Positions 4,245 through 20,119 of a stretch of 64,000 bases of DNA are shown one piece after another. Every line of letters begins with the position of its first letter. The stretch's first letter is position 1. The notes beneath the pieces are model-generated. The model did no database searches. It was not told the origin of the DNA and was given only the letters and a program-made list of their open reading frames with translations. The position numbers and the translations under genes are program-made. The DNA comes from Candidatus Mcinerneyibacterium aminivorans (GTDB taxonomy: Bacteria; Macinerneyibacteriota; Macinerneyibacteria; Macinerneyibacteriales; Macinerneyibacteriaceae). The stretch lies in contig VSIX01000029.1 in assembly GCA_008086245.1 (NCBI GenBank), positions 11,813 through 75,812 of the forward strand, written 5' to 3'.

Positions 4245-4286
4245 TGATTAATTGTGAAATAATTAATTATTTATTTGGGGTTAATT

Positions 4287-5363
4287 ATGGTAAATAGAGT
4301 TTTTCAAATTAAAATTACTGATTGGGTTTCTTTTTTGGAAGACATGTATCGGGAGTATGATATTTATGCCCCCCAGAGTTTTGAGGATAAATTATACTTT
4401 GAATTCCTTGATAAATCAGATATAAAAAATATTTCCTATAGAGATATAGCCTACAGAACAGTGCAGCCTATAAAAATATTTTTTCTTCCAGTTGGAGAAA
4501 CGGTTTCAAATACTTCTAATTCAGAAGAAATTGATAAAAATTATAAAAAGAAGATTCTTGTTGGATTGAAAGCATGTGATTTAAATGCATTATCAATTTT
4601 AGATGAGGTATATCTGGATGAAGATTTTATAGATCCATTCTATAAACATAGAAGAGAAGATACCATTATAATAAGCAGTGACTGCACCGATCCTTTAGAG
4701 TCCTGTTTCTGCACTGAAGTTGATTCACAACCGTATCCTGTTAAAAATTTTGATTTAAATCTTTCATTGGTTGATAATTATATTTTGATTGAAGTTGGAT
4801 CAGAAAAAGGGCAGAAATTAATAGATGAATATGGAAAAGATTACTTTAAAGAAGCAAATAATGGTTTAATAGATAAGAGAGAGCAAAATAGAGAAAAAAT
4901 AAAAAGTAAAGTAGAGGAAATTAACACTGAATTTGCAACAAAGGATTCATATGATCTAATACTTAAAGGAAATTATGAATCTGAAATTTGGGAGGAACTT
5001 GCAGAGGATTGTGTTGAATGTGGGGGGTGTACTAATATTTGTCCTACATGTCACTGTTTTATACTTGTGGATGGTGCAAAGGGCGAGGAATTCTTTAAAA
5101 ATAAATACTGGGATTCATGTCAATTAGATGATTTTACAAAAATGGCTGCCGGTGAGGATCCAAGGGATGAAATATGGAAAAGGTTCAGAAACCGTTATTT
5201 TTGCAAATATAATTATAAACTTGATAATTTTAATATCATTGCCTGTACTGGATGCGGTAGATGTATAGAAGCCTGTCAGGGTGATATAGATAAAAGAGAG
5301 GTTTTAAAAAAAGTTAGTGAAACTAAAAAAAACAAAAAGACAAATCGGGAGGAAGTAAACTAA
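4287..5363 (+). CDS. Fe-S protein of the sulfhydrogenase beta (HydB) / anaerobic sulfite reductase AsrA family
   Basis: C-terminal CVECGGCTNICPTCHC (CxxCxxCxxxCP) plus CTGCGRCIEAC. Length and Cys pattern fit the HydB/AsrA family. The tracked start at 4275 is TTG; ATG 4287 (MVNRVF) is preferred. Confidence 0.6.
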   Translation: MVNRVFQIKITDWVSFLEDMYREYDIYAPQSFEDKLYFEFLDKSDIKNISYRDIAYRTVQPIKIFFLPVGETVSNTSNSEEIDKNYKKKILVGLKACDLNALSILDEVYLDEDFIDPFYKHRREDTIIISSDCTDPLESCFCTEVDSQPYPVKNFDLNLSLVDNYILIEVGSEKGQKLIDEYGKDYFKEANNGLIDKREQNREKIKSKVEEINTEFATKDSYDLILKGNYESEIWEELAEDCVECGGCTNICPTCHCFILVDGAKGEEFFKNKYWDSCQLDDFTKMAAGEDPRDEIWKRFRNRYFCKYNYKLDNFNIIACTGCGRCIEACQGDIDKREVLKKVSETKKNKKTNREEVN

Positions 5364-5413
5364 ATTAAAATTATAATAACATACAGGTAAAACCATAAAA
5401 ATGGGAGGGATTA

Positions 5414-6232
5414 ATGAAAGAAAACCCTTATAATCCAATAAAGGCAAAAGTTGATGATGTAATAACGGAATCATCAACAATTAAAACATTAAAGTTAATC
5501 CCTGAAGAAAATTTTAGTTTTCAAGCTGGAGAGTTTATCGAACTAACCGTTCCAGGTGTTGGAGAAGCTCCCTTTACACCATCATCTTCACCTTATAATA
5601 CAGAGTCCTTAGATGTTACTGTAATGGAAGTTGGACGCGTAACAAGAAAAATTCATAATATGAAAAAAGGGGATATTACAGGTATCAGGGGACCATTAGG
5701 CAAAGGTTATCCTATTGAAAAATTTGAAAATAAGGAAGTACTTCTTCTTGGGGGAGGAGTTGGTATGGCTCCAATTCGTTCCTTATTGCTTGAATTAATC
5801 CATGATACAAGCAGGTTTGAACAAATATATTTGTGCTACGGATCAAAAACACCATCAGATATTATTTATAAAAATCAGTTTGAAAAATGGAGAAATGTTA
5901 AGGGATTAAAAGTTTTAAGAACTGTCGATGAGCCTGATGAAAATTGGGAGGAGTGTGTAGGAGTTGCTACGGTGCTACTAGAAAAAATTGATATCAATGT
6001 AGAAAATAGTGTTGCAATTGTCTGCGGACCTCCTGTAATGATGAAATTTGGAACTTACAGTCTTCTTGATATGGGATTCAAATCGGAAGATATATATTTA
6101 TCGATGGAAAGAAATATGTCCTGCGGTATAGGTAAATGCGGTCACTGCGCTCTTGGTAAATATTATGTATGTAAAGATGGTCCAGTATTTACCTATGAAC
6201 AAATAAAAGACATTCCGGAGAAATGGGTATAA
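5414..6232 (+). CDS. FAD/NAD(P)-binding oxidoreductase with C-terminal [2Fe-2S] cluster (sulfhydrogenase gamma HydG / AsrB / PyrK-like family)
   Basis: GGGVGMAPIRS (GGxGxxP NAD(P) motif). C-terminal CGIGKCGHCALGKYYVCKDGPVF is a PyrK-type 2Fe-2S motif. Confidence 0.7.
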   Translation: MKENPYNPIKAKVDDVITESSTIKTLKLIPEENFSFQAGEFIELTVPGVGEAPFTPSSSPYNTESLDVTVMEVGRVTRKIHNMKKGDITGIRGPLGKGYPIEKFENKEVLLLGGGVGMAPIRSLLLELIHDTSRFEQIYLCYGSKTPSDIIYKNQFEKWRNVKGLKVLRTVDEPDENWEECVGVATVLLEKIDINVENSVAIVCGPPVMMKFGTYSLLDMGFKSEDIYLSMERNMSCGIGKCGHCALGKYYVCKDGPVFTYEQIKDIPEKWV

Positions 6233-6705
6233 TTATGAAAAGATTATTTATTGATTTAGAAGTTTGTAAAAAATGTGAAAAATGTGTAATAGAATGCAGT
6301 TATTACAATCATTATCCCGAGAATAATGGAATTACTGCTCTTAGAGAAAGAGTTAGATATGCTTTGATTTGTAAGCAATGTGAAGAAGCACCATGTGTTG
6401 AGGTATGTCCCCAGGATGCTTTGGAAAAACAGGAGGATGGATCATTAAAAAGATATAATATGCTTTGTGTCGGTTGTAATTCCTGTGTTATAGCATGTCC
6501 TTTTGGAACAATTTATCCTGAATTAATACCTTATCTGGATTCTGTTTGTGATTACTGTAAAAAGAGATTTAAAGATGCCTACCTTTGTATTGAAACCTGT
6601 CCTTATGATGCGATTGAATATAAAGAAGTAAAGGAAGATAAAGAAAAAAATATTATACTAATAAATAAAAATTTAGGGGTGCATTTAAAAAAATGGAAAC
6701 TTTAA
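6223..6705 (+). CDS. 2x[4Fe-4S] ferredoxin (HycB-like electron-transfer subunit)
   Basis: CKQCEEAPCVEVCP and CVGCNSCVIACP motifs. Overlaps the upstream gene by 10 nt. Confidence 0.7.
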   Translation: MGIIMKRLFIDLEVCKKCEKCVIECSYYNHYPENNGITALRERVRYALICKQCEEAPCVEVCPQDALEKQEDGSLKRYNMLCVGCNSCVIACPFGTIYPELIPYLDSVCDYCKKRFKDAYLCIETCPYDAIEYKEVKEDKEKNIILINKNLGVHLKKWKL

Positions 6706-7628
6706 AATCAATTCTATATTTTATAGTTTTTCCCGGTTTTTTATTTACTGCAATTGCCGGTATTCTTGTAAGCTGGATAGATAGAAAGGTAACTGCTCTG
6801 GTGCAGTGGAGGGTGGGTCCTCCCTTTATGCAGCCCTTATATGATTTTGTGAAGTTATTGGGAAAAGAAACCATTATTCCCAGAGGAAGTTCCAAATTTA
6901 CCTTTTTATTATCACCGGTTTTGAGTTTAACCTCAATTACAATAGTTTCAACAATGCTTTGGCATACATTTATAATGCCCTCAAAGGGTTTTGTTGGAGA
7001 TTTAATTGTGATAGTGTATTTGCTGGTGATGCCTTCAATTGCAATTATTCTTGCGGGTTTTTCTTCAGCCAATCCTCTATCATCTATTGGTGCTTCAAGA
7101 GAAATGAAATTGTTACTTTCCTATGAATTACCTTTTATAATTTCTGTTTTAGTTGCTGTTATAAATTCAGGAAATGAGATATTGATGGGCAATATTTTAA
7201 TGTTTCAAAATAATAACGGAGCAATAGCAGGTTCTTTATCAGGTATTCTTGCTTTTGTTGTAGCTATTTTATGTATGCAGGCAAAATTAGCTCTTGTTCC
7301 TTTTGATGCCCCGGAAGCCGAAACCGAAATAACAGGCGGACCATTTATTGAATATTCCGGAACTCCTCTAGCAATATTTAAACTTAGCAGGTGGATGCTT
7401 CTTTTTGTGTTACCGCTTTTTTTGGTTGGTGTTTTCTGGGGCGGTTTTAGAATTGAAGGCATAGATTTATTGTGGAGTGTTTTGAAATATGTAGCGCTGC
7501 TCGTAGTTATAATACTGATTAAAAACACAGCCCCGAGATTTAGAATAGATCAGGTATTAAAGTTATTTTGGGGACCGATTACTTTCTTAGCTATACTTGC
7601 TGTAATATTAGCATATTTAGGAGTATAA
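6693..7628 (+). CDS. Group-4 [NiFe] hydrogenase membrane subunit, NuoH/EchB/MbhM-like
   Basis: 311 aa polytopic protein. EAETEITGGPFIEYSG matches the NuoH-family signature. Confidence 0.75.
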   Translation: METLKSILYFIVFPGFLFTAIAGILVSWIDRKVTALVQWRVGPPFMQPLYDFVKLLGKETIIPRGSSKFTFLLSPVLSLTSITIVSTMLWHTFIMPSKGFVGDLIVIVYLLVMPSIAIILAGFSSANPLSSIGASREMKLLLSYELPFIISVLVAVINSGNEILMGNILMFQNNNGAIAGSLSGILAFVVAILCMQAKLALVPFDAPEAETEITGGPFIEYSGTPLAIFKLSRWMLLFVLPLFLVGVFWGGFRIEGIDLLWSVLKYVALLVVIILIKNTAPRFRIDQVLKLFWGPITFLAILAVILAYLGV

Positions 7629-7629
7629 A

Positions 7630-8046
7630 ATGGGATTTAAGGAAAACGCTTTAAAACGGTCTTTATGGGTTTTTCATTTTAGCGGTGGCTCCTGTAACAA
7701 CTGTGATATTGAACTACTTGATTGTTTAACTCCAAGATATGATTTAGAACGTTTTGGGATAGAACTTGTAGGAAGTATAAGGCATGCAGATATAATTGCT
7801 GTGACGGGCATTGTAAACAGACAGTGTAAGCCCCGGTTAGAAAAGATTTATAAACAGGCATCCAAACCAGTTTTTGTAGTTGCATGTGGAGCCTGTCCAT
7901 GTACGGGAGGGATATTCAAAAATAGTTATCATACAGCAGGTCCTTTAGATGAAATAATTCCGGTAGATGCATACATTCCCGGATGTCCTCCTAAACCCGA
8001 AGCAATAATATCTGCTATAGTGAAATTAAGAAATAAATTGGAGTAG
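7630..8046 (+). CDS. [NiFe] hydrogenase small subunit, NuoB/EchC/MbhJ-like
   Basis: CNNC...ACGACPCTGG...IPGCPP, the conserved cysteines that hold the proximal 4Fe-4S cluster in the NuoB family. Confidence 0.8.
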   Translation: MGFKENALKRSLWVFHFSGGSCNNCDIELLDCLTPRYDLERFGIELVGSIRHADIIAVTGIVNRQCKPRLEKIYKQASKPVFVVACGACPCTGGIFKNSYHTAGPLDEIIPVDAYIPGCPPKPEAIISAIVKLRNKLE

Positions 8047-8049
8047 AAA

Positions 8050-8499
8050 ATGAATGAAGAAGTAATAAATATTAAAAATAAGTTCGATAATAAAATTGTT
8101 GAGTTTTATGAAAAATCTAAAAAGAGATATTATATCACGATTGAAAAGGATGATTTGCTCGATTTTGTCGATTATATTTTTAATGAATTGGGGTTCAGGT
8201 ATATGATTGAAACAGGGATTGATACCCCCGGGGGAATAGAGATCCTTTATCACTTTTCTTTTGACAGCAGGGAAACTGTGGTTACTTTGAAGACACTCTT
8301 GGATTCTAAAGAACCTGTAGTGGAATCAATAAGTTCAATAGTACCGGGGGCTAAGTGGATTGAAAGAGAGATTATGGATATCCTCGGAGTTAAGTTTTTA
8401 AATCATCCTAATCCGGAAAAATTTATTCTATCAGATGATTGGAATGAAAAAGAGTATCCACTGAGAAGAGATTATGATGAAAAGAAAAATAATAATTAA
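8050..8499 (+). CDS. NuoC-like (30 kDa) subunit of the group-4 hydrogenase (MbhK-like)
   Basis: 149 aa with a NuoC-family core (IVPGAKWIEREIMDILGVKF). Confidence 0.7.
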   Translation: MNEEVINIKNKFDNKIVEFYEKSKKRYYITIEKDDLLDFVDYIFNELGFRYMIETGIDTPGGIEILYHFSFDSRETVVTLKTLLDSKEPVVESISSIVPGAKWIEREIMDILGVKFLNHPNPEKFILSDDWNEKEYPLRRDYDEKKNNN

Positions 8500-8523
8500 T
8501 AAGTGCTATAGGGGATTATTATT

Positions 8524-9744
8524 ATGAGTGATGAAAATAAAAATAGTAAAAAAGAAAGAACTGTAATACCGATAGGTCCTTATCATCCACTTCAGGAGGA
8601 ACCGGAATATTTTCAGCTGCATGTGGAAGGCGAGATTGTAAAAAAAATTGAATGGAGAACTTCTTATAATCATCGGGGAATAGAAAAGCTATCCCAATCT
8701 ATGAGCTATGACCAGGTTCCATATCTGGTTGAACGCATTTGTGGTATATGTTCAACTTCTCACCCGCTTTCTTATGTTAATGCGGTTGAAGACCTGGCTG
8801 AAATTGAAGTCCCTGTTAGGGCAAAATATATTAGAACTATAATAGCCGAACTTGAGAGGTTACATTCTCACCTCTTATGGGTAGGATTAGCGGGTCATTT
8901 TCTGGGATTTAATACGGTATGGATGTGGGCATGGAAGTACAGGGAACCAGTTCTTGAAATAATGGAAGCGGTAACAGGGAATAGGCAGAATTATGCTATG
9001 ATGAAAATTGGTGGAATTAGAAGGGATATTGATAATGAGGATATACCGAGCATAAAAAAAATGCTTGATGATTTAAAACCTAAAGTTGACCTTTTAAGAG
9101 GTGCAGTAATGGATGACCCTATCATTCACGCCCGTACAAAGGGGATAGGTGTATTAACACCGGAAGATGTTCATAATTATGGAGCTTTGGGTCCTACTGC
9201 AAGAGCTTCTGGCATAAAAGATGATATCAGAAGGGATTATCCCTATGCAGCTTATGATATCATTGACTGGGATGTAATCGTGGAAGAAGAAGGAGATGTT
9301 TTTGCAAAAGCTGTTGTCAGAATCAAGGAAATGTATGAATCAATAAGCATGATTCATCAATGTTTGGATGCTCTAAAAAAAGAAAATGGGGAAATTGAAA
9401 CAACTGTAAAGGAGATTCCTCCAGGAGATGGAATCGGACAGGCAGAAGCACCGAGAGGGGAAGTTTTCCATTTTGTTAGAAGTGATGGTACAAATAGACC
9501 TGTTAGACACAAAGTAAGGGCTCCCAGTTTTTGCAATGTTCCGACTTTTGAGGTTACAACTGTGGGGGAAACTATTTCAGATGCTGCAATTATACTTGCT
9601 GCAGTGGATCCATGCTATTGCTGTACCGAGCGCATGGCCGTTATTAATTCTGAAGGTGAAAAAAGTTTAACAGGGGATGATTTAATAAAAATGTCGCAGC
9701 AGAAAACTGAAAGAATGAGAAAATCCAAAAAGGAGAATAAATGA
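8524..9744 (+). CDS. Group-4 [NiFe] hydrogenase large (catalytic) subunit, NuoD/EchE/MbhL-like
   Basis: N-terminal RICGICSTSH (RxCGxCxxxH) and C-terminal DPCYCCTER (DPCxxC) NiFe-ligand motifs are both present. 406 aa. Confidence 0.85.
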   Translation: MSDENKNSKKERTVIPIGPYHPLQEEPEYFQLHVEGEIVKKIEWRTSYNHRGIEKLSQSMSYDQVPYLVERICGICSTSHPLSYVNAVEDLAEIEVPVRAKYIRTIIAELERLHSHLLWVGLAGHFLGFNTVWMWAWKYREPVLEIMEAVTGNRQNYAMMKIGGIRRDIDNEDIPSIKKMLDDLKPKVDLLRGAVMDDPIIHARTKGIGVLTPEDVHNYGALGPTARASGIKDDIRRDYPYAAYDIIDWDVIVEEEGDVFAKAVVRIKEMYESISMIHQCLDALKKENGEIETTVKEIPPGDGIGQAEAPRGEVFHFVRSDGTNRPVRHKVRAPSFCNVPTFEVTTVGETISDAAIILAAVDPCYCCTERMAVINSEGEKSLTGDDLIKMSQQKTERMRKSKKENK

Positions 9745-11537
9745 ATTTGATATTGTTAACTATTGCAATTCCTCTCATTGCAGGCTTTTTAATTTTTATT
9801 CTTCCAAAAAAATTTACTAATATTACAAAGTTTCTTTCAACAATTTCCATATTAATATCTTTTATAATTAATATAATTTTGTTCATTAATACAGAAAAAA
9901 TAGTCAACAACTATTTTATGTTTGATAACTTATCTAAATTTATTTTGCTTTTTATAGGCCTGTTTGCAGTCTTTGTAATTATATATTCACTTAAATATAT
10001 AGAGAGTGTTACAGAAAATATAAATATGTATTTTTCATATATTTTGTTTACTGTAAGTGCATCTTATGGAGCAGCTCTTGCTAATAATTTAATTCTTCTC
10101 TCTGTATTTTGGGGATTTTTAGGTTTTACTTTATATATGTTAATAAATACGAATGACAATGCAACTGCTGAATCCAGTAAAGCTTTTATAATAATAGGAG
10201 CTACAGATTCATTGATGATAATTGGTATAGGTATTTTATATTACATCACCAGTTCTCTAAATATCAGCAGCATTAATATTTCTTTAAAACAGGGTCCCAT
10301 TTTTTTACCTACCATTGCATTTTTAACTTTTGTTGCTGCAGCATTTGCTAAAGCCGGCGCTATGCCTTTTCATACTTGGATTCCGGATATGTCGGAAAAG
10401 GCTCCCATTCCAGTTACAGCATTTTTACCTGCATCTTTGGATAAGCTTCTTGGGATATATTTACTTGCAAGAATAAGTATTAGTGTTTTTGAGCTTAATT
10501 CCTCAATGACATTTATATTATTACTGTTTGGATCAATTACAATAATTGCAGCCGTTTTTATGGCACTTGTTCAGCATGATTTAAGAAAACTGCTTTCCTA
10601 TCATGCAATAAGTCAGGTTGGGTATATGGTTCTTGGTATCGGTACGGGTAATCCCGTAGGTATAGCAGGGGGATTATTTCATATGCTTAATCATTCAATA
10701 TATAAAAGTAATTTGTTTTTAATAAGTGGTTCGGTAAAATATCGTACCAATACAATGAATATGGATAAACTTGGCGGACTGGCTAAATACATGCCGATAA
10801 CTTTTATTGGGGCTGTAATTGCCTCTCTATCAATATCCGGGGTGCCCCCATTTAATGGATTTGTTTCAAAATGGATGGTATATCAGGGTCTAATTGATAT
10901 GGGAAAAGCTGGAAGTAAATTATGGATTTTATGGCTTGTAGCAGCTATGTTTGGTTCCGCTTTGACTCTTGCTAGTTTCATGAAAGTCATTTATTCAGTA
11001 TTTCTGGGAAGATCAGAAAAAAAATGGAGTTTTGGGGATGTTAACTGGACTATGCTTTTACCTATTATTTTCCTATCGATTCTGTGTGTAGGATTCGGAG
11101 TTTTCGCTTTTGCAGTTCCATTAAAATTATTTATAATTCCAGCCCTTGGAGAAATTGGATTATTTGGATTATGGAATTCTCAAATGGCAACCTTATTAAT
11201 GTTAGTGGGCATTGCTTTGGGCTTTTTGATATACTTAATTGGAAATATGAAAAATGTACGTGAAAGCGATATTTTTATTGGAGGCGAAGAAATTCCTTCA
11301 AATAAAAGAGTTACAGGAACTGAATTTTATGACAGTATAAGGGATATATCTATTTTAGATAAAATATATAAAATGGCAGAGAAGAAATATTTTGACCTAT
11401 ATGAAATGCTTAAAAAATTTACATTTGCTATCACTAACAGACTCAGATTAATTCATTCGGGGAAACTTGTAGCATATATTCTTTGGATATTTTTTGGTAT
11501 GGCTGTTTTGTTTATTTTATTAAACATTAGGGGCTAA
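9741..11537 (+). CDS. Antiporter-like membrane subunit (NuoL/MrpA N-terminal type; MbhH-like)
   Basis: 598 aa polytopic protein. LLSYHAISQVGYMVLGIG matches the NuoL/M/N/MrpA/D proton-pump family core. Confidence 0.75.
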   Translation: MNLILLTIAIPLIAGFLIFILPKKFTNITKFLSTISILISFIINIILFINTEKIVNNYFMFDNLSKFILLFIGLFAVFVIIYSLKYIESVTENINMYFSYILFTVSASYGAALANNLILLSVFWGFLGFTLYMLINTNDNATAESSKAFIIIGATDSLMIIGIGILYYITSSLNISSINISLKQGPIFLPTIAFLTFVAAAFAKAGAMPFHTWIPDMSEKAPIPVTAFLPASLDKLLGIYLLARISISVFELNSSMTFILLLFGSITIIAAVFMALVQHDLRKLLSYHAISQVGYMVLGIGTGNPVGIAGGLFHMLNHSIYKSNLFLISGSVKYRTNTMNMDKLGGLAKYMPITFIGAVIASLSISGVPPFNGFVSKWMVYQGLIDMGKAGSKLWILWLVAAMFGSALTLASFMKVIYSVFLGRSEKKWSFGDVNWTMLLPIIFLSILCVGFGVFAFAVPLKLFIIPALGEIGLFGLWNSQMATLLMLVGIALGFLIYLIGNMKNVRESDIFIGGEEIPSNKRVTGTEFYDSIRDISILDKIYKMAEKKYFDLYEMLKKFTFAITNRLRLIHSGKLVAYILWIFFGMAVLFILLNIRG

Positions 11538-11538
11538 T

Positions 11539-12093
11539 ATGCTTGAACTTTACATTGTTTTAATATTAATGATAATTGGAGCTATAATAGCAGTAGAAAC
11601 AAAAAGTATTTTATCTTCGATAGTTGCTCTGGGTAAAGTAGGACTGGGGCTTACCATTGCCTTTTTGATATTAAAAGCTCCGGATTTGGCTATAGTTCAG
11701 CTAGTTGTTGAGATTTTAACCCTAATAATACTTATCCGTGCAACTCTTGGAAGAGATGTAAAATATACTAAAGAAAATCAGAACTGGGGGGTTAAATTTC
11801 TCTCAATTATTTTAATTATTATCTTTTTAATTTTTTCCTACAATGTTTTACAATCATTGCCGGAGTTCGGAAATCCAATATTAAAAGTTGCAGATTACTA
11901 TATAGAAAACGGCATGAAAGAAACGGGAGCTGCAAATCTTGTTACTTCTGTTATTCTTGATTTCCGTGCCTTTGATACTTTAGGAGAAGCAACAGTTTTA
12001 TTTACTGCTATTTTAGGAGCTTTAGCGGTTTTAAGAAAAAATGGAATTAAGGATAAAGATACAAAGGAAAATAAAGGAGTTCAAGGTGATTAA
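11539..12093 (+). CDS. Separately encoded MrpA C-terminal-like / MnhB-domain subunit (MbhD/E-like)
   Basis: N-terminal TM region plus NLVTSVILDFRAFDTLGEATVLFTAILG, the MnhB-domain signature. Confidence 0.6.
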   Translation: MLELYIVLILMIIGAIIAVETKSILSSIVALGKVGLGLTIAFLILKAPDLAIVQLVVEILTLIILIRATLGRDVKYTKENQNWGVKFLSIILIIIFLIFSYNVLQSLPEFGNPILKVADYYIENGMKETGAANLVTSVILDFRAFDTLGEATVLFTAILGALAVLRKNGIKDKDTKENKGVQGD

Positions 12094-12535
12094 TAACAGA
12101 GATTCTCAGGGTATGTCAGTAATTGTAAAAACTATTACAAGGTTGACTATTGGATTGATTCTTCTGTATGGTGTGTACATATTATTACACGGACATATTA
12201 CACCGGGAGGAGGTTTCGCCGGGGGAGTTATAATTGCCCTGTCTTTTATACATATAATGCTTGCTTTTGGAAAAAATGTTGCCCTTGAGAAATTAAATCA
12301 AACCTGGAGCAAAATTTTTGAAAGTACAGGGGCGCTGTTATTTATTACTATAGCATTTCTCGGTTTTTTTGGAGGGGTGTTTTTTAATAATTTTCTGGAT
12401 AAAGGAGAACATTTTGAACTTTTCAGTGCCGGAACAATCTTGCTTTCGAATATTGCAATATTTTTAAAGGTTGGAGCAGGTTTGTTTCTTTTATTTGTTG
12501 CTCTTGTTCTATTTAAAATTGGGGGTAGAAAGTGA
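12086..12535 (+). CDS. MrpB-like subunit (MbhF-like)
   Basis: HGHITPGGGFAGGVIIA is the MrpB signature. The tracked start (12041) overlaps the upstream gene. GTG 12086, preceded by AAAGGAG, is preferred. ATG 12113 is an alternative. Confidence 0.55.
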   Translation: MINNRDSQGMSVIVKTITRLTIGLILLYGVYILLHGHITPGGGFAGGVIIALSFIHIMLAFGKNVALEKLNQTWSKIFESTGALLFITIAFLGFFGGVFFNNFLDKGEHFELFSAGTILLSNIAIFLKVGAGLFLLFVALVLFKIGGRK

Positions 12536-12867
12536 TATATTTTCTTTGCTTTATATTATTTAGTATTGGACTTTATAGTATATTAACAAAAAGAAATCTC
12601 ATTAAAATTATAATCGGGATATCCATAGTTGATTATGCAATAAATTTATTCTTTATTTTGGTGGGATATAGAATGAATGGGAGATCTCCAATTTTAGAAA
12701 AAGGAGAAGAAATTGAAAGAATAGTCGATCCATTGCCCCAGGCCGTAGTTTTGACTTCTATTGTTATCGGTCTGGCAGTAACTGCATTACTGGTAGCAAT
12801 TGCTATTAGAATATATGAAAAATATGGTACTTTTGATATCAATGAAATTAAAGAATTGAAAGGATAA
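12532..12867 (+). CDS. MrpC/NuoK-like subunit (MbhG-like)
   Basis: 111 aa, 3 TM segments, NuoK/MrpC-like. Confidence 0.6.
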   Translation: MIYFLCFILFSIGLYSILTKRNLIKIIIGISIVDYAINLFFILVGYRMNGRSPILEKGEEIERIVDPLPQAVVLTSIVIGLAVTALLVAIAIRIYEKYGTFDINEIKELKG

Positions 12868-12869
12868 AA

Positions 12870-14363
12870 ATGGAACATATTATACCATTGTTTGTAGCAA
12901 TAAGTCTGGCAACAGCATTTTTAATATCACTGCTGGGATCAAAATTTAAATTTTTTAGAACAGCATTTCCTGTCATTTCTTCAGCTGCACTTGTTATACT
13001 TTCTGTTCTTTCAATTTTTCTTGTAAATAATAATGGTTTAATGGTATATAAAATGGGAGGCTGGATTCCTCCTATAGGAATATGTATGGTTCTGGACGGA
13101 TTGTCTTCCTTTATGCTTTTAACCGTTAATTTAGTTGCTTTTTTTATAATGATATATTCAATAAATTATGTTAAAAAATATACAGATGTTTATAAATATT
13201 TTGGGCTGCTATTTTTGATGCTGGCAGGAATGAATGGTGTAATTATAACAGGGGATCTTTTCAATTTATTTGTGTATTTGGAAGTTGCTGCAGTATCAAG
13301 TTATGCTCTTGTAGCTTTTGGTACAGGGAGACAGGAGCTGGAAGCATCCTTTAAATATATGGTTATGGGAACACTTGCTTCCGGTTTAATATTGTTATCA
13401 ATTGCTTTAATGTACAGCTATACTTCAACTTTAAACATGGCTGATATTGGCAAATCTCTTGCAAATGAAGGAAGTTCTTCCGTGATAATTTTTATTTCAG
13501 TAATGTTTATTGTAGGTTTTGGTCTAAAAGCAGCACTTGTGCCGTTTCACTGGTGGCTGCCCGATGCTCACCCATCTGCACCTGCACCTATTTCTGCTAT
13601 GCTTTCAGGGGTGCTTATAAAAGCATTAGGAGTTTATGCTATAATAAGAATATTTTACAATGTTATCGGAAGCAATATATATACTTCAAGAATATTGCTT
13701 GTATTAGGAACCCTTTCCATGATAGTTGGAGTAATTTTCGCAATTGGACAGTATGACTTTAAAAGATTGCTTGCATACCATTCAATAAGTCAGATCGGTT
13801 ATGTTATACTTGGAATCGGTTTGGCAACTCCTCTCGGAATTTTGGGGGGACTTTTCCATTTATTTAACCACTCAATATTCAAATCATTGCTCTTTTTAAA
13901 CTCGGGAGCTGTTGAATATTCAACCGGAACAAGAGATTTAAAGAAAATGGGTGGACTTAATAAGAAAATGCCGGTAACCGGAAATACATCAATGATAGCT
14001 TCTATGTCAATAGCTGGGATTCCACCTTTTAACGGATTCTGGAGTAAGCTTTTGATAATAATCGCCTGTGTAGAAGCTAATGAGTATATTTATGGACTAT
14101 TTGCTGTCATAGGTAGTGTTCTTACAATGGCATCCTTTATGAAAGTTCAGAAATATGCATTTCTGGGCAAACTAAAGGAAAAGTGGAAAAATATAGAGGA
14201 AGTACCATTTGGAATGAAGTTTTCTATGATTTGTTTGGCTCTTATTTGTGTATTTGGTGGTTTATTACTGTTACCTGAAATATCTAATTTATTACTGAAA
14301 GAAGCATCAAATGCAGTTTTAATAGGTAAAGAATATGTTAACCAGGTTCTGGGGAGTGTTTAA
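12870..14363 (+). CDS. Second antiporter-like subunit (MrpD/NuoM-N-like)
   Basis: 497 aa. LLAYHSISQIGYVILGIG and WWLPDAHPSAPAPISA fit the MrpD/NuoM family. Confidence 0.75.
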   Translation: MEHIIPLFVAISLATAFLISLLGSKFKFFRTAFPVISSAALVILSVLSIFLVNNNGLMVYKMGGWIPPIGICMVLDGLSSFMLLTVNLVAFFIMIYSINYVKKYTDVYKYFGLLFLMLAGMNGVIITGDLFNLFVYLEVAAVSSYALVAFGTGRQELEASFKYMVMGTLASGLILLSIALMYSYTSTLNMADIGKSLANEGSSSVIIFISVMFIVGFGLKAALVPFHWWLPDAHPSAPAPISAMLSGVLIKALGVYAIIRIFYNVIGSNIYTSRILLVLGTLSMIVGVIFAIGQYDFKRLLAYHSISQIGYVILGIGLATPLGILGGLFHLFNHSIFKSLLFLNSGAVEYSTGTRDLKKMGGLNKKMPVTGNTSMIASMSIAGIPPFNGFWSKLLIIIACVEANEYIYGLFAVIGSVLTMASFMKVQKYAFLGKLKEKWKNIEEVPFGMKFSMICLALICVFGGLLLLPEISNLLLKEASNAVLIGKEYVNQVLGSV

Positions 14364-14857
14364 TGAGAAGCAAAATAGTTTTATTTATAGTGGCGTTGGT
14401 AGTTTGGCTGGGTTTCACCTGGCCACCTGATTTGTCTCATTTGTTGGTAGGAATACTTGTAGCTATTTTCGTGGCTTACATGACAGGTGATATGTTTATA
14501 ACACGTCCACATCACTTAATACATCCTTTGAGGTATTTCTGGCTATTTGTCTATATTCCTGTGTTTATATGGGAATGTTTTAAAGCTAATCTGGATGTCG
14601 TTTACAGGGTTATCCATCCTGATGTTCCTATTAATCCGGGTATTGTTAAAGTTAAAACCAAATTAAAGTCGGATACTGGAATTACTTTTTTAGCCAATTC
14701 TATTACCCTAACACCTGGAACCTTAAGTGTGGATGTAGATCAGGATAATGGATACTTATATATCCACTGGATCCATGTTTTTAATGAAGATGTTGAAGGA
14801 GCAACTAAAGATATTGTTAGAAGATTTGAATATATATTGGAAAGGATTTTCGAATAA
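14363..14857 (+). CDS. MrpE-like subunit (MbhA-like)
   Basis: 164 aa, N-terminal TM pair. Position in the Mrp E-F-G series. Confidence 0.5.
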   Translation: MRSKIVLFIVALVVWLGFTWPPDLSHLLVGILVAIFVAYMTGDMFITRPHHLIHPLRYFWLFVYIPVFIWECFKANLDVVYRVIHPDVPINPGIVKVKTKLKSDTGITFLANSITLTPGTLSVDVDQDNGYLYIHWIHVFNEDVEGATKDIVRRFEYILERIFE

Positions 14858-15228
14858 TGAAAAAGAGATTGCGATGGATTTTAGGTTCTGTAGTTTTAAT
14901 TATAATATTATATTTAATTTTATTTTATCCCTTCCAGATATTAATATATGAGAAATTATTATTTATACCTGTATTAAAAAGGGTAATCTTTATTCTCTTA
15001 TTGAGTGCAGCTTTTTGTTTGTTTAGGATTATGAAAGGACCTACTGCTCTGGATAGAATAGTTGCTATTGATATTTTGGGGATATTAATTGTTGGGTTAT
15101 GCTCTGTATTAACTATTACCACCGGAAGAAGCTGGTATCTTGATATAGGTATAGCCTGGGCATTACAGAGTTTTATAGGAACAATAGCACTTTCAAAATA
15201 TATGGAAGGGCGGGATTTTGATGATTGA
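14857..15228 (+). CDS. MrpF-like subunit (MbhB-like)
   Basis: 123 aa, small 3-TM protein immediately following the MrpE-like ORF. Confidence 0.5.
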   Translation: MKKRLRWILGSVVLIIILYLILFYPFQILIYEKLLFIPVLKRVIFILLLSAAFCLFRIMKGPTALDRIVAIDILGILIVGLCSVLTITTGRSWYLDIGIAWALQSFIGTIALSKYMEGRDFDD

Positions 15229-15565
15229 TACTATAGGGATTATTTTTATAGGTCTAGGGATCTTTTTTGACCTTTTTGGTTGTTTGGGTTTAATAAGATT
15301 TCCGGATTTATATAATAGGCTACAGGCATCAACCAAATGTGTTACATTTGGAACGGGAAGTATTTTATTTGGAACTTTTTTAATAGTGGGATTTACAGCG
15401 GCAGGTATAAAAGCATTATTTACAATTATCTTTATTGTTCTTACAGCGCCGGTTTCTGCCCATGCTTTGTCCAAAAGTGCACATATGTCCGGAATACCAT
15501 TATGGCAGGAAAGTGTATGCGATAAATTGGAAGATGAAAACAGATATAAAAAGAACGACCAGTAG
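15218..15565 (+). CDS. MrpG-like subunit (MbhC-like)
   Basis: 115 aa, TM-rich. ...TAPVSAHALSKSAH resembles the MnhG family. Confidence 0.55.
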   Translation: MMIDTIGIIFIGLGIFFDLFGCLGLIRFPDLYNRLQASTKCVTFGTGSILFGTFLIVGFTAAGIKALFTIIFIVLTAPVSAHALSKSAHMSGIPLWQESVCDKLEDENRYKKNDQ

Positions 15566-15595
15566 TATTATAAAATATAATAGTGAGGGATAAAT

Positions 15596-16234
15596 ATGAA
15601 GCTACCCAGTCTTTTTCAGTTTAGAGTTTTAAAAGAGGCTTTAAAATCAATATTTTCGCCGAGATATACTTCCAAATATCCGGCTGTGTCCCATGTTCCC
15701 CCAAAAAAATTTAGGGGGAAACCGGAATTTAATGAGAAAGAATGCGTTGGTTGTAAGGCTTGTGCCGAAGTTTGTCCTACAGAGGCAATTGAGGTAGTTG
15801 ATGATGTTGAAATATCGCCTCCTAATAGAAAATTTCTTCATCATTATGATTTATGTATATTTTGCGGTCACTGTGAGGCGAACTGTATTACAGAAAAGGG
15901 GATTGTTTTAGAAGACGAATACGATCTTGCTGTGTTTGATAGAGACGAAGCATTTACTTCTATTGATAAAGAATTAATAATCTGTGAGGATTGTGGGGAA
16001 ATAATTGGGGCTAAGGATCATTTAATCTATCTGGCTAAAAAATTAGGGCCTCTTGCTTACGGTAACTTCCCCCTTATTATGACAGCACAAAAAGAACTAA
16101 AAATCGTAAACAGAGATCTTCCTTCCACAATATCTGGAGAAAAAAGAAGAACGGACATGTTTAATGTACTGTGCCCCAAATGTAGAAGTGAAATACTTAT
16201 AAATATTGGTGGAAGTGAGAATGAAGAAGATTGA
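15596..16234 (+). CDS. NuoI-like 2x[4Fe-4S] subunit (MbhN-like) with a Cys-rich C-terminal extension
   Basis: CVGCKACAEVCP and CIFCGHCEANC motifs. An extra CEDCGE...CPKC pair lies in the C-terminal ~80 aa. Confidence 0.75.
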   Translation: MKLPSLFQFRVLKEALKSIFSPRYTSKYPAVSHVPPKKFRGKPEFNEKECVGCKACAEVCPTEAIEVVDDVEISPPNRKFLHHYDLCIFCGHCEANCITEKGIVLEDEYDLAVFDRDEAFTSIDKELIICEDCGEIIGAKDHLIYLAKKLGPLAYGNFPLIMTAQKELKIVNRDLPSTISGEKRRTDMFNVLCPKCRSEILINIGGSENEED

Positions 16235-16667
16235 CGACATATTAAAAGGGAAGGTACTTTTTGTAGGAATCGGAAATGAAATGAGAGGAGATGATGGGAT
16301 AGGTCCTTTTTTTGTCAAAAAGGGGCGAAGATTATTAGATGATTATCAGTTTTTGAATGTAAAAGAAACACCGGAAAATTATTTTGACAAAATGTTAGAA
16401 AAGGATATTGATACTTTAATATTTGTCGATGCCGTTGATTTTAATTCATCACCCGGAACCATCAAATTATTTGGTAAAGATCAGATTGTTAATTCTTCAA
16501 TATCCACACATAATTCATCATTAAAAATGTCGATTAATTTTTTAAAACAATTTAAAGCAAATCTAAGAATATTTTTAATAGGAATTCAACCTGAGAACTG
16601 TCAATTGAATAACAATTTATCATTTAATGTGAAAAGTAGTATTGATAGACTTCTAGATAAACTATAG
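16206..16667 (+). CDS. hycI: Hydrogenase maturation endopeptidase (HycI/HybD family)
   Basis: VLFVGIGNEMRGDDGIGPF matches the GiGN...DDg.G protease signature. Confidence 0.8.
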   Translation: MVEVRMKKIDDILKGKVLFVGIGNEMRGDDGIGPFFVKKGRRLLDDYQFLNVKETPENYFDKMLEKDIDTLIFVDAVDFNSSPGTIKLFGKDQIVNSSISTHNSSLKMSINFLKQFKANLRIFLIGIQPENCQLNNNLSFNVKSSIDRLLDKL

Positions 16668-16704: not shown

Positions 16705-17061
16705 ATGGATAATATGGATATAGCGGATGATTTATATTTACTTATTAAAGACCTTGCAGAAGAAGAAAATATACACTCTGTAAAGTATATTAAATTGGTA
16801 ATTGGTAAAGCATTGGAGGTTAATAAGAAAGGATTATTCAAAAAATTACAGAAGGATATATTTCCCGGGACAATTTGTAAGAATACTAAATTGGATATTG
16901 TAGAAGAAAGTGTGAAATTAAAGTGTAGAAAATGCAGCAAAATTATGACACCTGATCAAAAGTTTTTTGTATATTGTAATTATTGCGGGGGGCATGATTT
17001 TGATATTATTCAGGGTAGAAAGATATATATTGACAAAATTGAAGGGAAGACAAAGCAATAA
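16705..17061 (+). CDS. HypA-like zinc-finger protein lacking the N-terminal MHE nickel-binding motif (HypA paralog)
   Basis: CRKC-14 aa-CNYC zinc finger. Overall alignment to HypA is good, but the N-terminus is MDNMDIADD, not MHE. Confidence 0.55.
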   Translation: MDNMDIADDLYLLIKDLAEEENIHSVKYIKLVIGKALEVNKKGLFKKLQKDIFPGTICKNTKLDIVEESVKLKCRKCSKIMTPDQKFFVYCNYCGGHDFDIIQGRKIYIDKIEGKTKQ

Positions 17062-17079: not shown

Positions 17080-17724
17080 ATGGAGATTGTGAAAATTGGG
17101 AAAGAGGCAATGAAAAAAAATGAAAATTTTGCTGATAAAAATAATAAATTACTTACAGATAATGATATATTTGCCGTTGATGTTATGGGATCGGTTGGTT
17201 CGGGAAAAACATCAATAATTAAGCAAATAATTAAAAAATTAAAAAATAAACAAAGAATTGGAGTGATAGCAGGGGATTTGACTACTGAGATTGATGCCAG
17301 GCGAATTGAAGAGGAAGGAGTACCTGTAATACAGATTCAAACGGGAAGAGTGTGTCATTTGGATGCTGGACTTGTACAAAAAGCTATTACAAAATTTAAT
17401 TTGGCGGATATAGATTTATTATTTATAGAAAATGTAGGTAATTTAATTTGTCCTGCAGGCTGTCCGATAGGAGCCCATATGGAACTTGTTGTTACTTCTG
17501 TGACCGAAGGGCCCTATATGATTCAGAAACATCCACCGATGTTTCAAAGAGCCGATACAGTAGCTATGAATAAAATAGATTTTGCCGAAAAGATGGAAAT
17601 CTCAATTGAAAATTTTAAAGAAGATTTGAGTAAAATTAACCCGACATCTAAATTTGTCGGGACTAACGGGTTAACCGGCGAAGGGGTTGAAGAGTTAATT
17701 GAATGCATGAATTTACCGCAGTAA
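17080..17724 (+). CDS. hypB: Hydrogenase nickel incorporation GTPase HypB
   Basis: GSVGSGKTS P-loop. ENVGNLICPAGCPIGAH is the HypB signature. 214 aa. Confidence 0.85.
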   Translation: MEIVKIGKEAMKKNENFADKNNKLLTDNDIFAVDVMGSVGSGKTSIIKQIIKKLKNKQRIGVIAGDLTTEIDARRIEEEGVPVIQIQTGRVCHLDAGLVQKAITKFNLADIDLLFIENVGNLICPAGCPIGAHMELVVTSVTEGPYMIQKHPPMFQRADTVAMNKIDFAEKMEISIENFKEDLSKINPTSKFVGTNGLTGEGVEELIECMNLPQ

Positions 17725-18104
17725 AAAATATTATCAATATTATTTTAAAAGCTGCAAGGGATAATAATGCAGAAAAAATATATTCAATTAAAATCGGTAT
17801 AGGTGAATTAACAATGCTTGAGAAAAATCAGATCCAATACTGGTTAAAGCTAATGCTGGATGAGATAGATATAGCCAAAAACAGCAAGTTAAATTTACAT
17901 ATAATAAAAGGCGTTATAAGATGTCAGGAGTGCAATTTTAAGGGACCGCTTGAATCAACTATGGAACTTAACCATCTTTTCCCTGTAATTAAATGCCCGG
18001 AGTGTGAAAGCAATAATATTGAAATTATTAAAGGGGACAGATGCCTTGTAGAAGAAATGGAAGTAGATAAATATAATGAAAGTATATCAGGAGGGGATAA
18101 TTAA
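17703..18104 (+). CDS. hypA: Hydrogenase nickel insertion protein HypA (canonical)
   Basis: N-terminal MHEFTAV (MHE Ni site). CQEC...CPEC zinc finger. Overlaps hypB by 22 nt. Confidence 0.85.
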   Translation: MHEFTAVKNIINIILKAARDNNAEKIYSIKIGIGELTMLEKNQIQYWLKLMLDEIDIAKNSKLNLHIIKGVIRCQECNFKGPLESTMELNHLFPVIKCPECESNNIEIIKGDRCLVEEMEVDKYNESISGGDN

Positions 18105-19414
18105 TGTGCTATGCTATTCCTGGACAGGTTGTAGATATTAATAAGAAAAGATTGATTGTAGAGTATTTCGGTGAAAAAAGAAAGGTCCTAAACGAATTTT
18201 TGGATATCAGCATAGGAGATTATATATATGCCCAGGGGGGATATGCCATCAATAAAATACCCGAAAAGGAAGCCGTATCCATTTTAACTGCATGGAGGGA
18301 AACTTTTTTCAATTTGCAAAAAGTTGATTTAAAAATATCTAAAAGGGATTATAAGGATAAAAATATTAGAAAAGATATTGCGAATATACTGGATAAAGCT
18401 GTAGAAAATAAAGACCTTTCTAAGAAAGAACTTTTAAAACTGATGAATATAGAAAAAAAAGAAGAATTAGAAATGCTTTATAAAACGGCAAATTTTTTGA
18501 GAAGAAAATATATGGGTAATTCATGCTGTGTTCATGGAATTATAGAATATTCGAATAACTGTGTTCGTAATTGTAAATATTGCGGTATATCTACTTATAA
18601 TTCTGATATATCAAGATATAATATAGAAGAAAAAAATATTGTTAAAATTGCAAATAAAGCTGTTAACGAGCATGGCTTTATGGCTCTGGTTTTACAGAGT
18701 GGTGAATCTGATGAGTACAGTATTGAAAAACTATGCAGGATTATAAAAAAAATTAGAAAAGATATTGCTGTTTTGATTTTTATAAGTATGGGAGAACTTT
18801 CCAGAAAAGAATTGCAAAAATTGTATGATGCAGGGGCAAGAGGTTTTCTCCTGCGGTTTGAAACAAGCAATGAAGAGTTATATTCAAAATTACATCCCGG
18901 ATATAGATTGGAAGATAGAATTAACTGTATACAAAACGCTTCTGATATAGGTTATTTTATTGTAACAGGTGGTTTAATTGGACTCCCCGGGCAAACAAGA
19001 AAAGATGTATTAAATTCCATATTGCTTGCGAGAAAACTTAAAACCGAAATGTACAGCTTTGCCCCCTTTATACCCACACCTAATACTCCCCTTAACAGTG
19101 AAACCAGTCCGGAAGAAAAAGAAGTTTTAAAAACTCTGGCTATATCCAGAATAGTTGATCCAGAGAATGCCAAAATATTAATTACAACTGCATTTGAAAC
19201 AATAAATAAATCGGCAAGAAAAAATGGCCTTCTAGCTGGAGGTAATTCTTTAATGTTAAATGTTACTCCCGATAAATATAAAAATAATTATTTCTTGTAT
19301 CCAAACAGGGCTCATAATAATGAAACTATACAGGAACAAATTGATGAAACCGTAAATCTGCTGAATTATCTCGGTAGAGCCCCAACTGATATAGGTATAA
19401 ATTGGAATAGTTAA
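18104..19414 (+). CDS. Fusion protein: N-terminal HypC/HupF-like domain (MCYAIPG...) fused to a HydE/BioB/PylB-family radical SAM domain
   Basis: First ~70 aa: MCYAIPGQVVDIN...GDYIYAQGGYAI...EKEAVSILTAWRE, a HypC pattern with Cys2. From ~aa 125: LRRKYMGNSCCVHGIIEYSNNCVRNCKYCGIS (CX3CX2C), LQSGE, LLRFETSNEELYSKLHP, IGLPGQT and FIPTPNTPL, close to HydE motifs as remembered. Start overlaps the hypA stop (TAATG). Confidence 0.7.
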   Translation: MCYAIPGQVVDINKKRLIVEYFGEKRKVLNEFLDISIGDYIYAQGGYAINKIPEKEAVSILTAWRETFFNLQKVDLKISKRDYKDKNIRKDIANILDKAVENKDLSKKELLKLMNIEKKEELEMLYKTANFLRRKYMGNSCCVHGIIEYSNNCVRNCKYCGISTYNSDISRYNIEEKNIVKIANKAVNEHGFMALVLQSGESDEYSIEKLCRIIKKIRKDIAVLIFISMGELSRKELQKLYDAGARGFLLRFETSNEELYSKLHPGYRLEDRINCIQNASDIGYFIVTGGLIGLPGQTRKDVLNSILLARKLKTEMYSFAPFIPTPNTPLNSETSPEEKEVLKTLAISRIVDPENAKILITTAFETINKSARKNGLLAGGNSLMLNVTPDKYKNNYFLYPNRAHNNETIQEQIDETVNLLNYLGRAPTDIGINWNS

Positions 19415-19674: not shown

Positions 19675-20115
19675 ATGAAAATAAAAAAAATAGATAAAAG
19701 TTCAGAACTGGACAAATATGGGATTGAATCGGTAGTAAAGTTTTTACATAAGCATCTGGAAGAATATGGGGATAAGAAAAAAGCTATCAGGGAAGCGATA
19801 AATTATTCATTTTCAGAAAAAGAAGGAAAAGGTGGATTTCTTCTTTTAGGTCTGGAGAAAGATAAAATAATAGGAGCAGTTGTAATAAATAAGACAGGAA
19901 TGAAGCATTATATACCTGAAAATATTCTTGTATATATAAGTACTCACAAAAAGAGAAGAGGTCAGGGGTTGGGAACAAAACTGATGAAAAAAACAATAGA
20001 GGAAACATCTGGAAATATTGCTCTGCATGTCGAAGAGGATAATCCGGCCGTGGGTCTTTATAAAAAATTAGGATTTGAAACCAAATATCTTGAAATGAGA
20101 TACAGGAAAGATTAA
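19675..20115 (+). CDS. GNAT family N-acetyltransferase
   Basis: 146 aa. RRGQGLGTKLMKK and HVEEDNPAVGLYKKLGFE are GNAT motifs A and B. Confidence 0.7.
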   Translation: MKIKKIDKSSELDKYGIESVVKFLHKHLEEYGDKKKAIREAINYSFSEKEGKGGFLLLGLEKDKIIGAVVINKTGMKHYIPENILVYISTHKKRRGQGLGTKLMKKTIEETSGNIALHVEEDNPAVGLYKKLGFETKYLEMRYRKD

Positions 20116-20119
20116 GGTT

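Follow-up and report, generated by a model that had tools for sequence, protein, structure and literature searches.

A HypC domain fused to a HydE-like radical SAM enzyme in [NiFe]-hydrogenase operons and its recurrent linkage to hydG

The fusion gene and its operon

The gene described here occupies positions 18104..19414 of a 64-kb stretch of 'Candidatus Mcinerneyibacterium aminivorans' DNA (hereafter the window, meaning the whole stretch analysed, in which all features given below lie on the + strand), and encodes a protein of 436 amino acids (aa) plus stop in which a HypC-type chaperone domain is joined to a HydE-type radical S-adenosylmethionine (SAM) enzyme. It is the terminal gene of a hydrogenase operon and is followed by a 260-nt AT-rich gap. 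The product is identical to a protein of the metagenome-assembled genome (MAG) of this organism, to which NCBI gives the label HydE. An earlier note made from the sequence alone had proposed the fusion; the open reading frame (ORF) is present as described and its translation is exactly as quoted there.

The N-terminal 64 residues (18104..18295) form a HypC-type OB-fold domain, as judged from Pfam HupF_HypC (PF01455; residues 1-64, 52.8 bits against a gathering score of 28.5), from a full-length alignment with the HypC of Thermococcus kodakarensis (2Z1C, 49.6 bits), and from residues that are invariant in the family. The protein starts with MCYAIPG, and the Cys2 codon (18107-18109) opens an invariant C-Y-x-I-P-G motif; in an alignment of 54 family members, with a mean column identity of 69%, C2, Y3, I5, P6 and G7 never vary. 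The HypC model TIGR00074 is borderline, with 45.8 bits for the whole protein and 48.6 bits for the isolated domain against a cutoff of 48. A conserved helical connector together with the N-terminal helices of HydE follows (aa 65-137, 18296..18514; family alignment and model), and leads into a HydE-type radical SAM (beta/alpha) barrel (aa 138-430, 18515..19393) recognised by hidden Markov models, structure alignment, an AlphaFold model and superposition.

Pfam Radical_SAM covers residues 147-306 (73.8 bits), and the translation and the alignment with the HydE of Thermotoga maritima (TmHydE; 3CIX, 3IIZ, 7O1O) place the radical SAM cluster motif C153-x3-C157-x2-C160 at 18560..18583. TmHydE is co-linear with residues 95-427 of the fusion, residue by residue (211 bits), bearing out the motif-by-motif match that had been drawn with the Thermotoga enzyme. 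The top NCBIfam model is HydE TIGR03956 (242.9 bits, residues 96-413), slightly below its equivalog cutoff of 254.6; PylB (153.2 bits, cutoff 348), BioB (129.5, cutoff 225) and HmdB (90, cutoff 321) come well below it and all under their own cutoffs. Identity as BioB, PylB or HmdB is ruled out by these scores together with the gene context, no locus having a biotin, pyrrolysine or Hmd setting. An AlphaFold2 model computed from the 54-member alignment (predicted local distance difference test 90.7; predicted template modelling score, pTM, 0.90) was matched by Foldseek to TmHydE with an E-value of ~4e-32, a target-normalised template modelling score (TM) of 0.93-0.97 and 36% identity. The HydE-type barrel anticipated in the earlier note is therefore present, but the C-terminal auxiliary cluster site that it expected is not, no auxiliary-cluster cysteines occurring in the region of the fusion aligned to TmHydE. 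In the connector, W64, F68, L71 and D75 are also invariant, which along with the high pTM points to a fixed two-domain unit rather than a loose linker between two fused proteins.

The fusion gene is translationally coupled to hypA (133 aa, 17703..18104; Pfam). Inspection of 18090..18106 revealed a GGAGG ribosome-binding site at 18090-18094, 9 nt 5' of the start codon, and a TAATG overlap in which the hypA stop codon (18102-18104) shares its last nucleotide with the fusion start codon (18104-18106), as the earlier note had read it. The other neighbours that it listed were all recovered by Pfam-level annotation, namely hypB (CobW/HypB GTPase, 17080..17724), a second hypA paralogue (118 aa, 16705..17061) and a hycI-type large-subunit endopeptidase gene (16206..16667). 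Upstream of these lie the structural genes of a group-4 membrane-bound [NiFe] hydrogenase of the Mbh/Mrp type (4275..16234; annotation and check of the Ni motifs), also as claimed. This set includes Fer4_22, a FAD/NAD module, NuoH-like and 30-kDa subunits, Mrp-type antiporter subunits and a ferredoxin, as well as the [NiFe] small subunit (7630-8046) and the large subunit (8524-9744), the latter with both Ni-binding motifs and a C-terminal extension. In the 64-kb window no hydA, hydF, hydG, hypD, hypE, hypF or second radical SAM gene was found, in agreement with the absence of [FeFe] hydrogenase, hydG and hydF noted before; the window outside the hydrogenase operon consists of housekeeping genes.

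A family with an altered HypC domain and a rebuilt HydE product site

The same architecture is widespread. The best 120 homologues, 53-81% identical to the window protein, are full-length fusions of HypC and radical SAM domains apart from two apparent partials, and a metagenome scan yielded at least 487 confirmed relatives. Going by NCBI names, the family spans at least six lineages, including Margulisbacteria, Saganbacteria, Omnitrophica, Caldatribacterium and Elusimicrobia, under inconsistent database labels ('HydE', 'radical SAM protein', 'biotin synthase', 'HypC family chaperone'). When only the radical SAM domain served as query in an exhaustive search of representatives clustered at 50% identity, the nearest clusters all carried an N-terminal extension of ~90 residues, and unfused proteins of ~350 aa appeared only below ~240 bits. 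Two HypC-fused subtypes are distinguished, type I ('MCYAIPG…YAQGG'), to which the window protein belongs, and the more divergent type II ('MCLTIPG…').

Several variants of this architecture were encountered along the way. One locus (L022, 428-1723) has a 69-aa HypC ORF and a 340-aa HydE-like ORF, ~70 nt apart, in place of the fusion; these may be two genuinely separate genes or the result of a frameshift introduced in assembly. Among other HydE-like radical SAM proteins, P0168 and P0193 bear an N-terminal Se/S-carrier domain (PF11823), P0174 and P0259 appear from their sequences to be of the same kind, and P0141, P0155 and P0192 have a common N-terminal extension without family match. It seems that fusion to small carrier domains containing cysteine has occurred repeatedly in the HydE family.

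The HypC half departs from canonical HypC at a conserved position. A 'vHxGFA' motif with its His is found in three solved HypCs, those of T. kodakarensis and E. coli and the Shewanella-type HupF/HypC. In the window protein it is Gln44 (codon 18233-18235) that aligns to this conserved His (H51 of E. coli), the E. coli alignment itself being weak (14 bits, E = 0.5). Throughout the 54-member alignment, type I proteins keep this Gln44 without exception, and type II has Ala, Thr or Tyr there. The iron ligands proposed for the canonical system are C2 and H51 of HypC with C41 of HypD, and their exchange abolishes activity (2025 review, PMC12134894). At one type II locus (L096), a canonical stand-alone HypC that retains the His is encoded directly upstream of a fused domain that lacks it. 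The loss of the His and this side-by-side pair argue that the fused domain is a specialised HypC paralogue, which, to judge from its residues, may hold iron differently or only transiently.

The enzyme half is likewise a paralogue, of HydE. In L078, a 3b [NiFe]–hycI–hypA–fusion operon is directly preceded by hydF, whose product has the dimer and tetramer domains that Pfam defines for HydF, by hydG and by an unfused hydE of 366 aa that reaches 359.6 bits with the HydE model; in L047 and L050 the fusion follows hycI, with hydABC, hydG and an unfused hydE a few kb away. The coexistence of a canonical unfused hydE with the fusion in these three loci is what identifies the latter as a paralogue. 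The HydE model gives type I fusions 225-246 bits (225.1, 245.8 and 238.6 for others than that of the window), all below the cutoff of 254.6, and the type II protein P0137 scores 273.4 bits, just above it. In a neighbour-joining tree based on a simple distance, with 149 HydE-like domains and two HydG sequences as root (151 in total), all HypC-fused sequences group together with three unfused sisters apart from canonical HydEs, with bootstrap values of only 55-63%; strict monophyly of the fused proteins alone was not recovered. An extra 373-aa radical SAM protein encoded in L096 was considered as a canonical HydE and rejected, having no BLAST match to HydE, HydG or fusion references; the context of its CX3CX2C motif (CAMECGFCATG) looks RlmN-like.

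TmHydE positions were mapped onto the alignment for 24 HypC-fused and 111 canonical HydE sequences. Common to both groups are the radical SAM cysteines and, given as TmHydE/window, Q107/Q198, L157/L249, R159/R251, T268-T269/T361-T362 and K309/R402 (Lys or Arg). M224/M316 and M291/M384 are present in 24/24 fused and 105/111 canonical sequences. Since M224 and M291 of TmHydE bind Fe(CO)2(CN) species (PMC10114646, PMC11826987), M316 (19049..19051) is by equivalence the Fe(CO)2CN-binding Met and M384 (19253..19255) the second Fe-binding Met, both invariant in the fused clade. In TmHydE, four polar residues, R54, T134, R155 and T269, are reported to touch the CN ligands of the product, an Fe(I) dimer (PMC11826987), and it is here that the two groups part: position 54, Arg in 104/111 canonical enzymes (94%), is His in 24/24 fused ones (H144 in the window); position 134, Thr in 98/111, is Phe in 21/24; and position 155, Arg in 98/111, is Gly or Ala in 24/24. 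Of the four residues of this product site (S3), only T269 is retained. At position 52, where canonical HydE has His, Tyr or Phe, all 24 fused sequences have Cys (C142), so that family alignment and residue mapping define a clade signature C141-C142-V143-H144 in strand beta-1 (18524..18535). The pattern indicates that the substrate-processing half of HydE has been conserved and the product or exit site rebuilt; the new Cys-x-His pair could bind a metal.

Gene neighbourhoods and the link to HydG

Dereplication of the fetched loci at 95% identity of the fusion protein left 75 non-redundant loci, whose ORFs were called and then labelled by BLAST against references verified by Pfam or NCBIfam. Thirty-one of them are well flanked, with at least 5 kb on each side of the fusion, and in these the presence of a gene was scored within 10 kb. 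Genes for [NiFe] large or small subunits occur in 29 of the 31, 19 being of 3b type and 10 of group 4. Directly upstream of the fusion stands hypA in 31/75 loci (median gap 9 nt) or hycI in 11/75 (median gap 5 nt). The usual order runs from the [NiFe] structural genes, which are either of 3b type (Fer4_22, FAD/NAD, small and large subunit) or a group-4 Mbh/Mrp set, through hycI, a short hypA and the fusion, sometimes followed by a Rex-like regulator gene, to hydG; an alternative layout has the fusion immediately before a group-4 operon that resembles those of formate hydrogenlyase. These operons hold hycI, hypA and sometimes hypB, typically with no separate hypC or hypD, and crude motif scans found no hypD, hypE or hypF signature in the 1.26 Mb flanking fusion genes. 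The genes of [FeFe] hydrogenase biogenesis are scarce, hydF being present in 1/75 loci and [FeFe] hydA in 3/75, and these loci also have a separate canonical hydE.

A recurrent companion of the fusion is hydG, found in 35/75 loci and in 18/31 of the well-flanked ones. In 16 loci it lies immediately downstream of the fusion with a median gap of -4 nt, the genes overlapping by 4-8 nt in nine. The neighbouring genes with radical SAM and BATS domains encode genuine HydG by the equivalog model, which assigns them 463, 506 and 545 bits where 312 is the cutoff. Moreover, P0121 (906 aa) and P0128 (881 aa), one from each subtype, are HypC–HydE-like–HydG triple fusions, whose HydG parts score 607 and 631 bits and whose genes are both located within [NiFe] operons. 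Type II fusions are likewise [NiFe]-linked and followed by hydG, in the order hycI–hypA–hypB–fusion–hydG in L097, and as stand-alone hypC–fusion–hydG beside a divergently transcribed 3b operon in L096. The nearest unfused relatives are likewise flanked by [NiFe] genes and hydG; in L098 such a gene overlaps the end of a [NiFe] large-subunit gene (…DPCMSCAAH…) and precedes hydG. The operon and HydG linkages, like the domain architecture and the residue pattern, are shown by the sequences, the fold and genome comparison.

The idea that the fusion has a HydG paralogue of its own was considered and rejected, since the hydG genes near canonical hydE in L047 and L050 are 77-80% identical to those adjoining the fusion in related loci. 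Some of the HydGs show a peculiarity of their own: in L008, L002, L030, L034, L035 and L042 the C-terminus carries a variant cysteine pattern (FCTAGYRCGRTGKC…FC), and this variant replaces the canonical CX2CX22C auxiliary-cluster motif in 9 of the 27 full-length HydGs near fusions. By BLAST similarity, the HydG of L078, beside hydF and hydE, belongs with the subgroup of the variant-motif HydGs. On an archaeal-looking contig with a histone-fold gene (L095, 4766-7208), an unfused HydE-like gene with the Cys-x-His signature adjoins hydG (545 bits), with no hydrogenase gene in the 15.8 kb of this locus; an 89-aa ORF upstream of this unfused sister was examined as a stand-alone HypC and discarded, as it has no HypC motif and no family match.

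Saganbacteria provide an argument at the level of a lineage. They are reported to be without [FeFe] hydrogenases, their genomes encoding only group 3b and group 4 [NiFe] enzymes (Carnevali et al., PMC6349859), and the Saganbacteria locus L009 reads Rex–3b [NiFe]–hycI–hypA–fusion–hydG, several further fusions being assigned to Saganbacteria by NCBI name. These data support a [NiFe] role. A preprint on a 1.52-Mb symbiont gives as its maturation genes HybD, HypA, HypB and the fusion only, terms them a 'full maturation machinery', and makes no mention of HydG, HydF or HypD. This is the single passing mention, without analysis, that a literature search returned, and no functional description of the family was found. 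We found no account of this fusion family, its association with [NiFe] genes and hydG, or the changes in its active site; the parts themselves belong to known families.

Other observations concern the neighbourhoods of the fusion genes. In the window, two full-size hypA paralogues (16705-17061 and 17703-18104) flank hypB; most related loci have instead a short hypA of ~80 aa just 5' of the fusion (e.g. L005, 9753-9995), and some (e.g. L050, 2296-2601) a 102-aa protein whose similarity to HypA is confined to the N-terminal half of the latter (25 bits, under the cutoff). The Fer4_22, FAD/NAD-binding (AsrA/AsrB-like) and ferredoxin genes that precede the group-4 Mbh/Mrp hydrogenase at 4275-6705 suggest an NAD(P)H-linked membrane-bound hydrogenase; the same module was described for the Mbh of Saganbacteria (Carnevali et al., 2019, PMC6349859). 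In one set of loci (L010, L034, L045, L049, L051, L069, L082 and L091), the genes that follow the fusion encode Fer4_22, FAD/NAD, a ~500-aa molybdopterin oxidoreductase, a ferredoxin, a tetratricopeptide repeat (TPR) protein and a group-4 [NiFe] hydrogenase, the TPR gene within these formate-hydrogenlyase-like operons (L010 etc.) being unusual. In L096, the 3b-type large subunit (12660-13937) stops exactly at DPCITCSVH, without a C-terminal extension, and no hycI is present in the locus, which is consistent with maturation without need of a protease. In the Caldatribacterium saccharofermentans locus (L005, 1-4852), genes for a reverse-transcriptase–Cas1 fusion, Cas2 and an IS605 OrfB/TnpB-like protein precede the [NiFe] operon.

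Downstream of the fusion in the window (19675-22598) come genes for a GNAT acetyltransferase and an Ala_racemase_N-type pyridoxal phosphate (PLP) protein, then L-serine dehydratase. The locus with an 81% identical fusion (L012) shows the same GNAT and PLP gene order until its 3,983-bp contig ends; because other lineages lack it, this order is probably synteny unrelated to the fusion. Window ORFs of 159, 354, 374, 272 and 251 aa, at 35218-37375, 23349-24473, 30375-31193 and 32415-33170, have no Pfam hit.

A proposed role in [NiFe] maturation

The best explanation is that the fusion belongs to the maturation set of a [NiFe] hydrogenase. Within that set, we think it reasonably probable, reasoning from genes and residues, that it processes the Fe(CO)2(CN) synthon of HydG and transfers the iron fragment onto the HypC domain that it carries. 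The reactions, and the direction in which the fragment would move, are inferred to be these. HydG would build the [Fe(Cys)(CO)2(CN)] synthon from tyrosine, and the HydE-like domain would strip it of its cysteine backbone by a HydE-type radical attack on the cysteine sulfur. Instead of being dimerised for HydF, the resulting mononuclear Fe(CO)x(CN) fragment would be captured by the Cys142/His144 site and passed to Cys2 of the HypC domain, which would then deliver it to the apo large subunit, either directly or via HypC/HypD. A second cyanide, which HypE/F could add, would have to replace one CO, after which nickel would be inserted by HypA and HypB and the large subunit trimmed by HycI. The earlier note had put forward the fusion as a candidate for a radical SAM step in [NiFe] cofactor biosynthesis. 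This much is favoured by the operon position, the coexistence with canonical HydE, the remodelled product site and the Saganbacteria. It needs amending in that CO and CN would most likely come from HydG, with the fusion as the enzyme that would process and hand off the iron fragment and not itself make the ligands.

Several observations weigh against this proposal. No hydG is found in the window, over 18 kb upstream and 45 kb downstream of the fusion, nor at the Caldatribacterium locus, nor within 10 kb in 13/31 well-flanked loci, so dependence on HydG is not universal as far as adjacency tells; the hydG of 'Ca. M. aminivorans' must lie outside the window, if present at all. The fused HypC lacks the His that has been proposed to take part in holding iron on the HypCD scaffold and may therefore behave unlike canonical HypC. 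The synthon of HydG has two CO and one CN, the [NiFe] site one CO and two CN, and this mismatch is why an additional ligand exchange has to be assumed. Some lineages that bear the fusion have [FeFe] hydrogenases, at times in the same locus (L047, L050). The argument from Saganbacteria is MAG-based, and the genomes reported differ from the loci analysed here. To these are added the low bootstrap values of the tree, and the fact that the model is one of genomic inference.

Three other explanations have to be set beside this one. The fusion could be the organism's ordinary HydE for the [FeFe] H-cluster, its HypC-like part an accessory carrier of the synthon and its place in [NiFe] operons a matter of co-regulation. 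HydE is indeed its top model and fold match, the equivalents of M224 and M291 are conserved, hydG is tightly linked, NCBI labels several members HydE, and [FeFe] hydABC share the locus in L047 and L050. Nevertheless, a canonical unfused HydE stands alongside the fusion in those two loci and in L078, hydF is near the fusion in 1/75 loci as against 42/75 with hycI or hypA directly upstream, the site for the Fe(I) dimer product has been replaced, and Saganbacteria carry the fusion and hydG and are reported to lack [FeFe] hydrogenases; we regard this explanation as quite unlikely. Less improbable, and still doubtful, is a role in [NiFe] maturation independent of HydG, in which the enzyme would carry out a different radical reaction on a cysteine or sulfur substrate at or near Cys2 of HypC, for example the release of CO from another small molecule or a modification of the large subunit, and the adjacency of hydG would reflect a shared regulon. 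The covalent HypC–HydE-like–HydG fusions in two divergent subtypes, the frequent 4-8 nt start/stop overlaps with hydG and the retention of residues that position and process the HydG synthon in TmHydE all speak against it. In its favour are the missing hydG of the window and of 13/31 well-flanked loci, the remodelled pocket, which could mean a changed substrate or product, and the symbiont preprint, which names HybD, HypA, HypB and the fusion and never HydG, though that last point is an argument from silence.

The boldest alternative is that HydG and the fusion replace the HypC/D/E/F pathway entirely, all three diatomic ligands coming from tyrosine. It would account for the lack of hypD/E/F signatures in the 1.26 Mb surveyed, for operons with hycI, hypA and sometimes hypB but without hypC or hypD, and for the 'full maturation machinery' of the symbiont. 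The motif scans are crude, however, and hypCDEF are often unlinked from structural operons, so that their absence within 10 kb weighs little; in L096 the fusion is immediately preceded by a separate hypC of canonical type, and the stoichiometry of the HydG synthon is at odds with the [NiFe] site. We give such a replacement little credence, and hold out only a slim chance that HydG and the HypC–HydE-like protein constitute, in many anaerobic lineages, a self-sufficient tyrosine-fed radical SAM route to the whole Fe(CO)(CN)2 unit in place of HypD/E/F. Were that route real, [FeFe] and [NiFe] maturation would share an ancestral ligand-synthesis module.

Processing of the HydG synthon for [NiFe] maturation would set the fusion apart from the systems that it resembles. 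With HydE it shares full-length co-linearity at ~36% identity, a TM of 0.93-0.97, the CX3CX2C motif, the partnership with HydG and the conserved Q107, L157, R159, M224, M291, T268/T269 and K309 (Lys or Arg). Unlike HydE, it has an N-terminal HypC domain, scores below the equivalog cutoff in type I, has His, Phe and Gly/Ala for R54, T134 and R155 with Cys at position 52, lacks auxiliary-cluster cysteines, neighbours [NiFe] genes instead of hydF and hydA, and coexists with a canonical HydE in some genomes. With HypC, HybG and HupF it has in common an OB-fold of equal length opened by Met-Cys and an x-x-(I/V)-P-G motif, and a genetic setting of hypA, hypB, hycI and [NiFe] structural genes; it differs in having Gln (type I) or Ala, Thr or Tyr (type II) at the His position, in the lack of a nearby hypD, in a C-terminal helix that runs into the conserved connector and enzyme domain, and, in L096, in being accompanied by a separate canonical HypC.

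As in the HydG–HydE–HydF pathway, HydG is a recurrent partner and the upstream half of HydE chemistry appears conserved, but no HydF scaffold is found near the fusion; the fragment would be received by the HypC domain, and as a mononuclear species, not a dimer. The Chlamydomonas HydEF protein, which combines HydE with the HydF that accepts its product, offers a precedent for the joining of an enzyme to its acceptor, although partner and target are there HydF and the [FeFe] enzyme instead of HypC and the [NiFe] enzyme, and the domains come in another order. The aerobic CO-ligand synthase HypX would meet the same need, the supply of CO for the Fe(CN)2CO unit, but is unrelated in fold and chemistry (CO derived from formyl-tetrahydrofolate) and works under oxic conditions, whereas the fusion module is found in strict anaerobes. 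To our knowledge, HydG is the only anaerobic enzyme that makes both CO and CN on iron. We also know of no such fusion genes in E. coli and other model anaerobes, so the fusion is not a universal answer to the anaerobic source of CO. Its carrier C. saccharofermentans grows in pure culture and makes H2 (PMC13408713), which renders the hypothesis directly testable.

The fusion physically links the carrier chaperone of the Fe(CN)2CO unit with a relative of the enzyme that acts on an Fe(CO)2(CN)-cysteine complex, and recruits HydG. Databases hold hundreds of copies, mostly mis-annotated or inconsistently annotated; if the proposed role is true, the 'HydE' labels on these proteins need correction, and hydG and HydE-like genes would be unreliable markers of [FeFe] hydrogenases in metagenomes. 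Some anaerobes would then obtain the CO of their [NiFe] hydrogenases by borrowing the [FeFe] ligand factory, and two hydrogenase maturation pathways long held to be unrelated would prove to be mechanistically connected.

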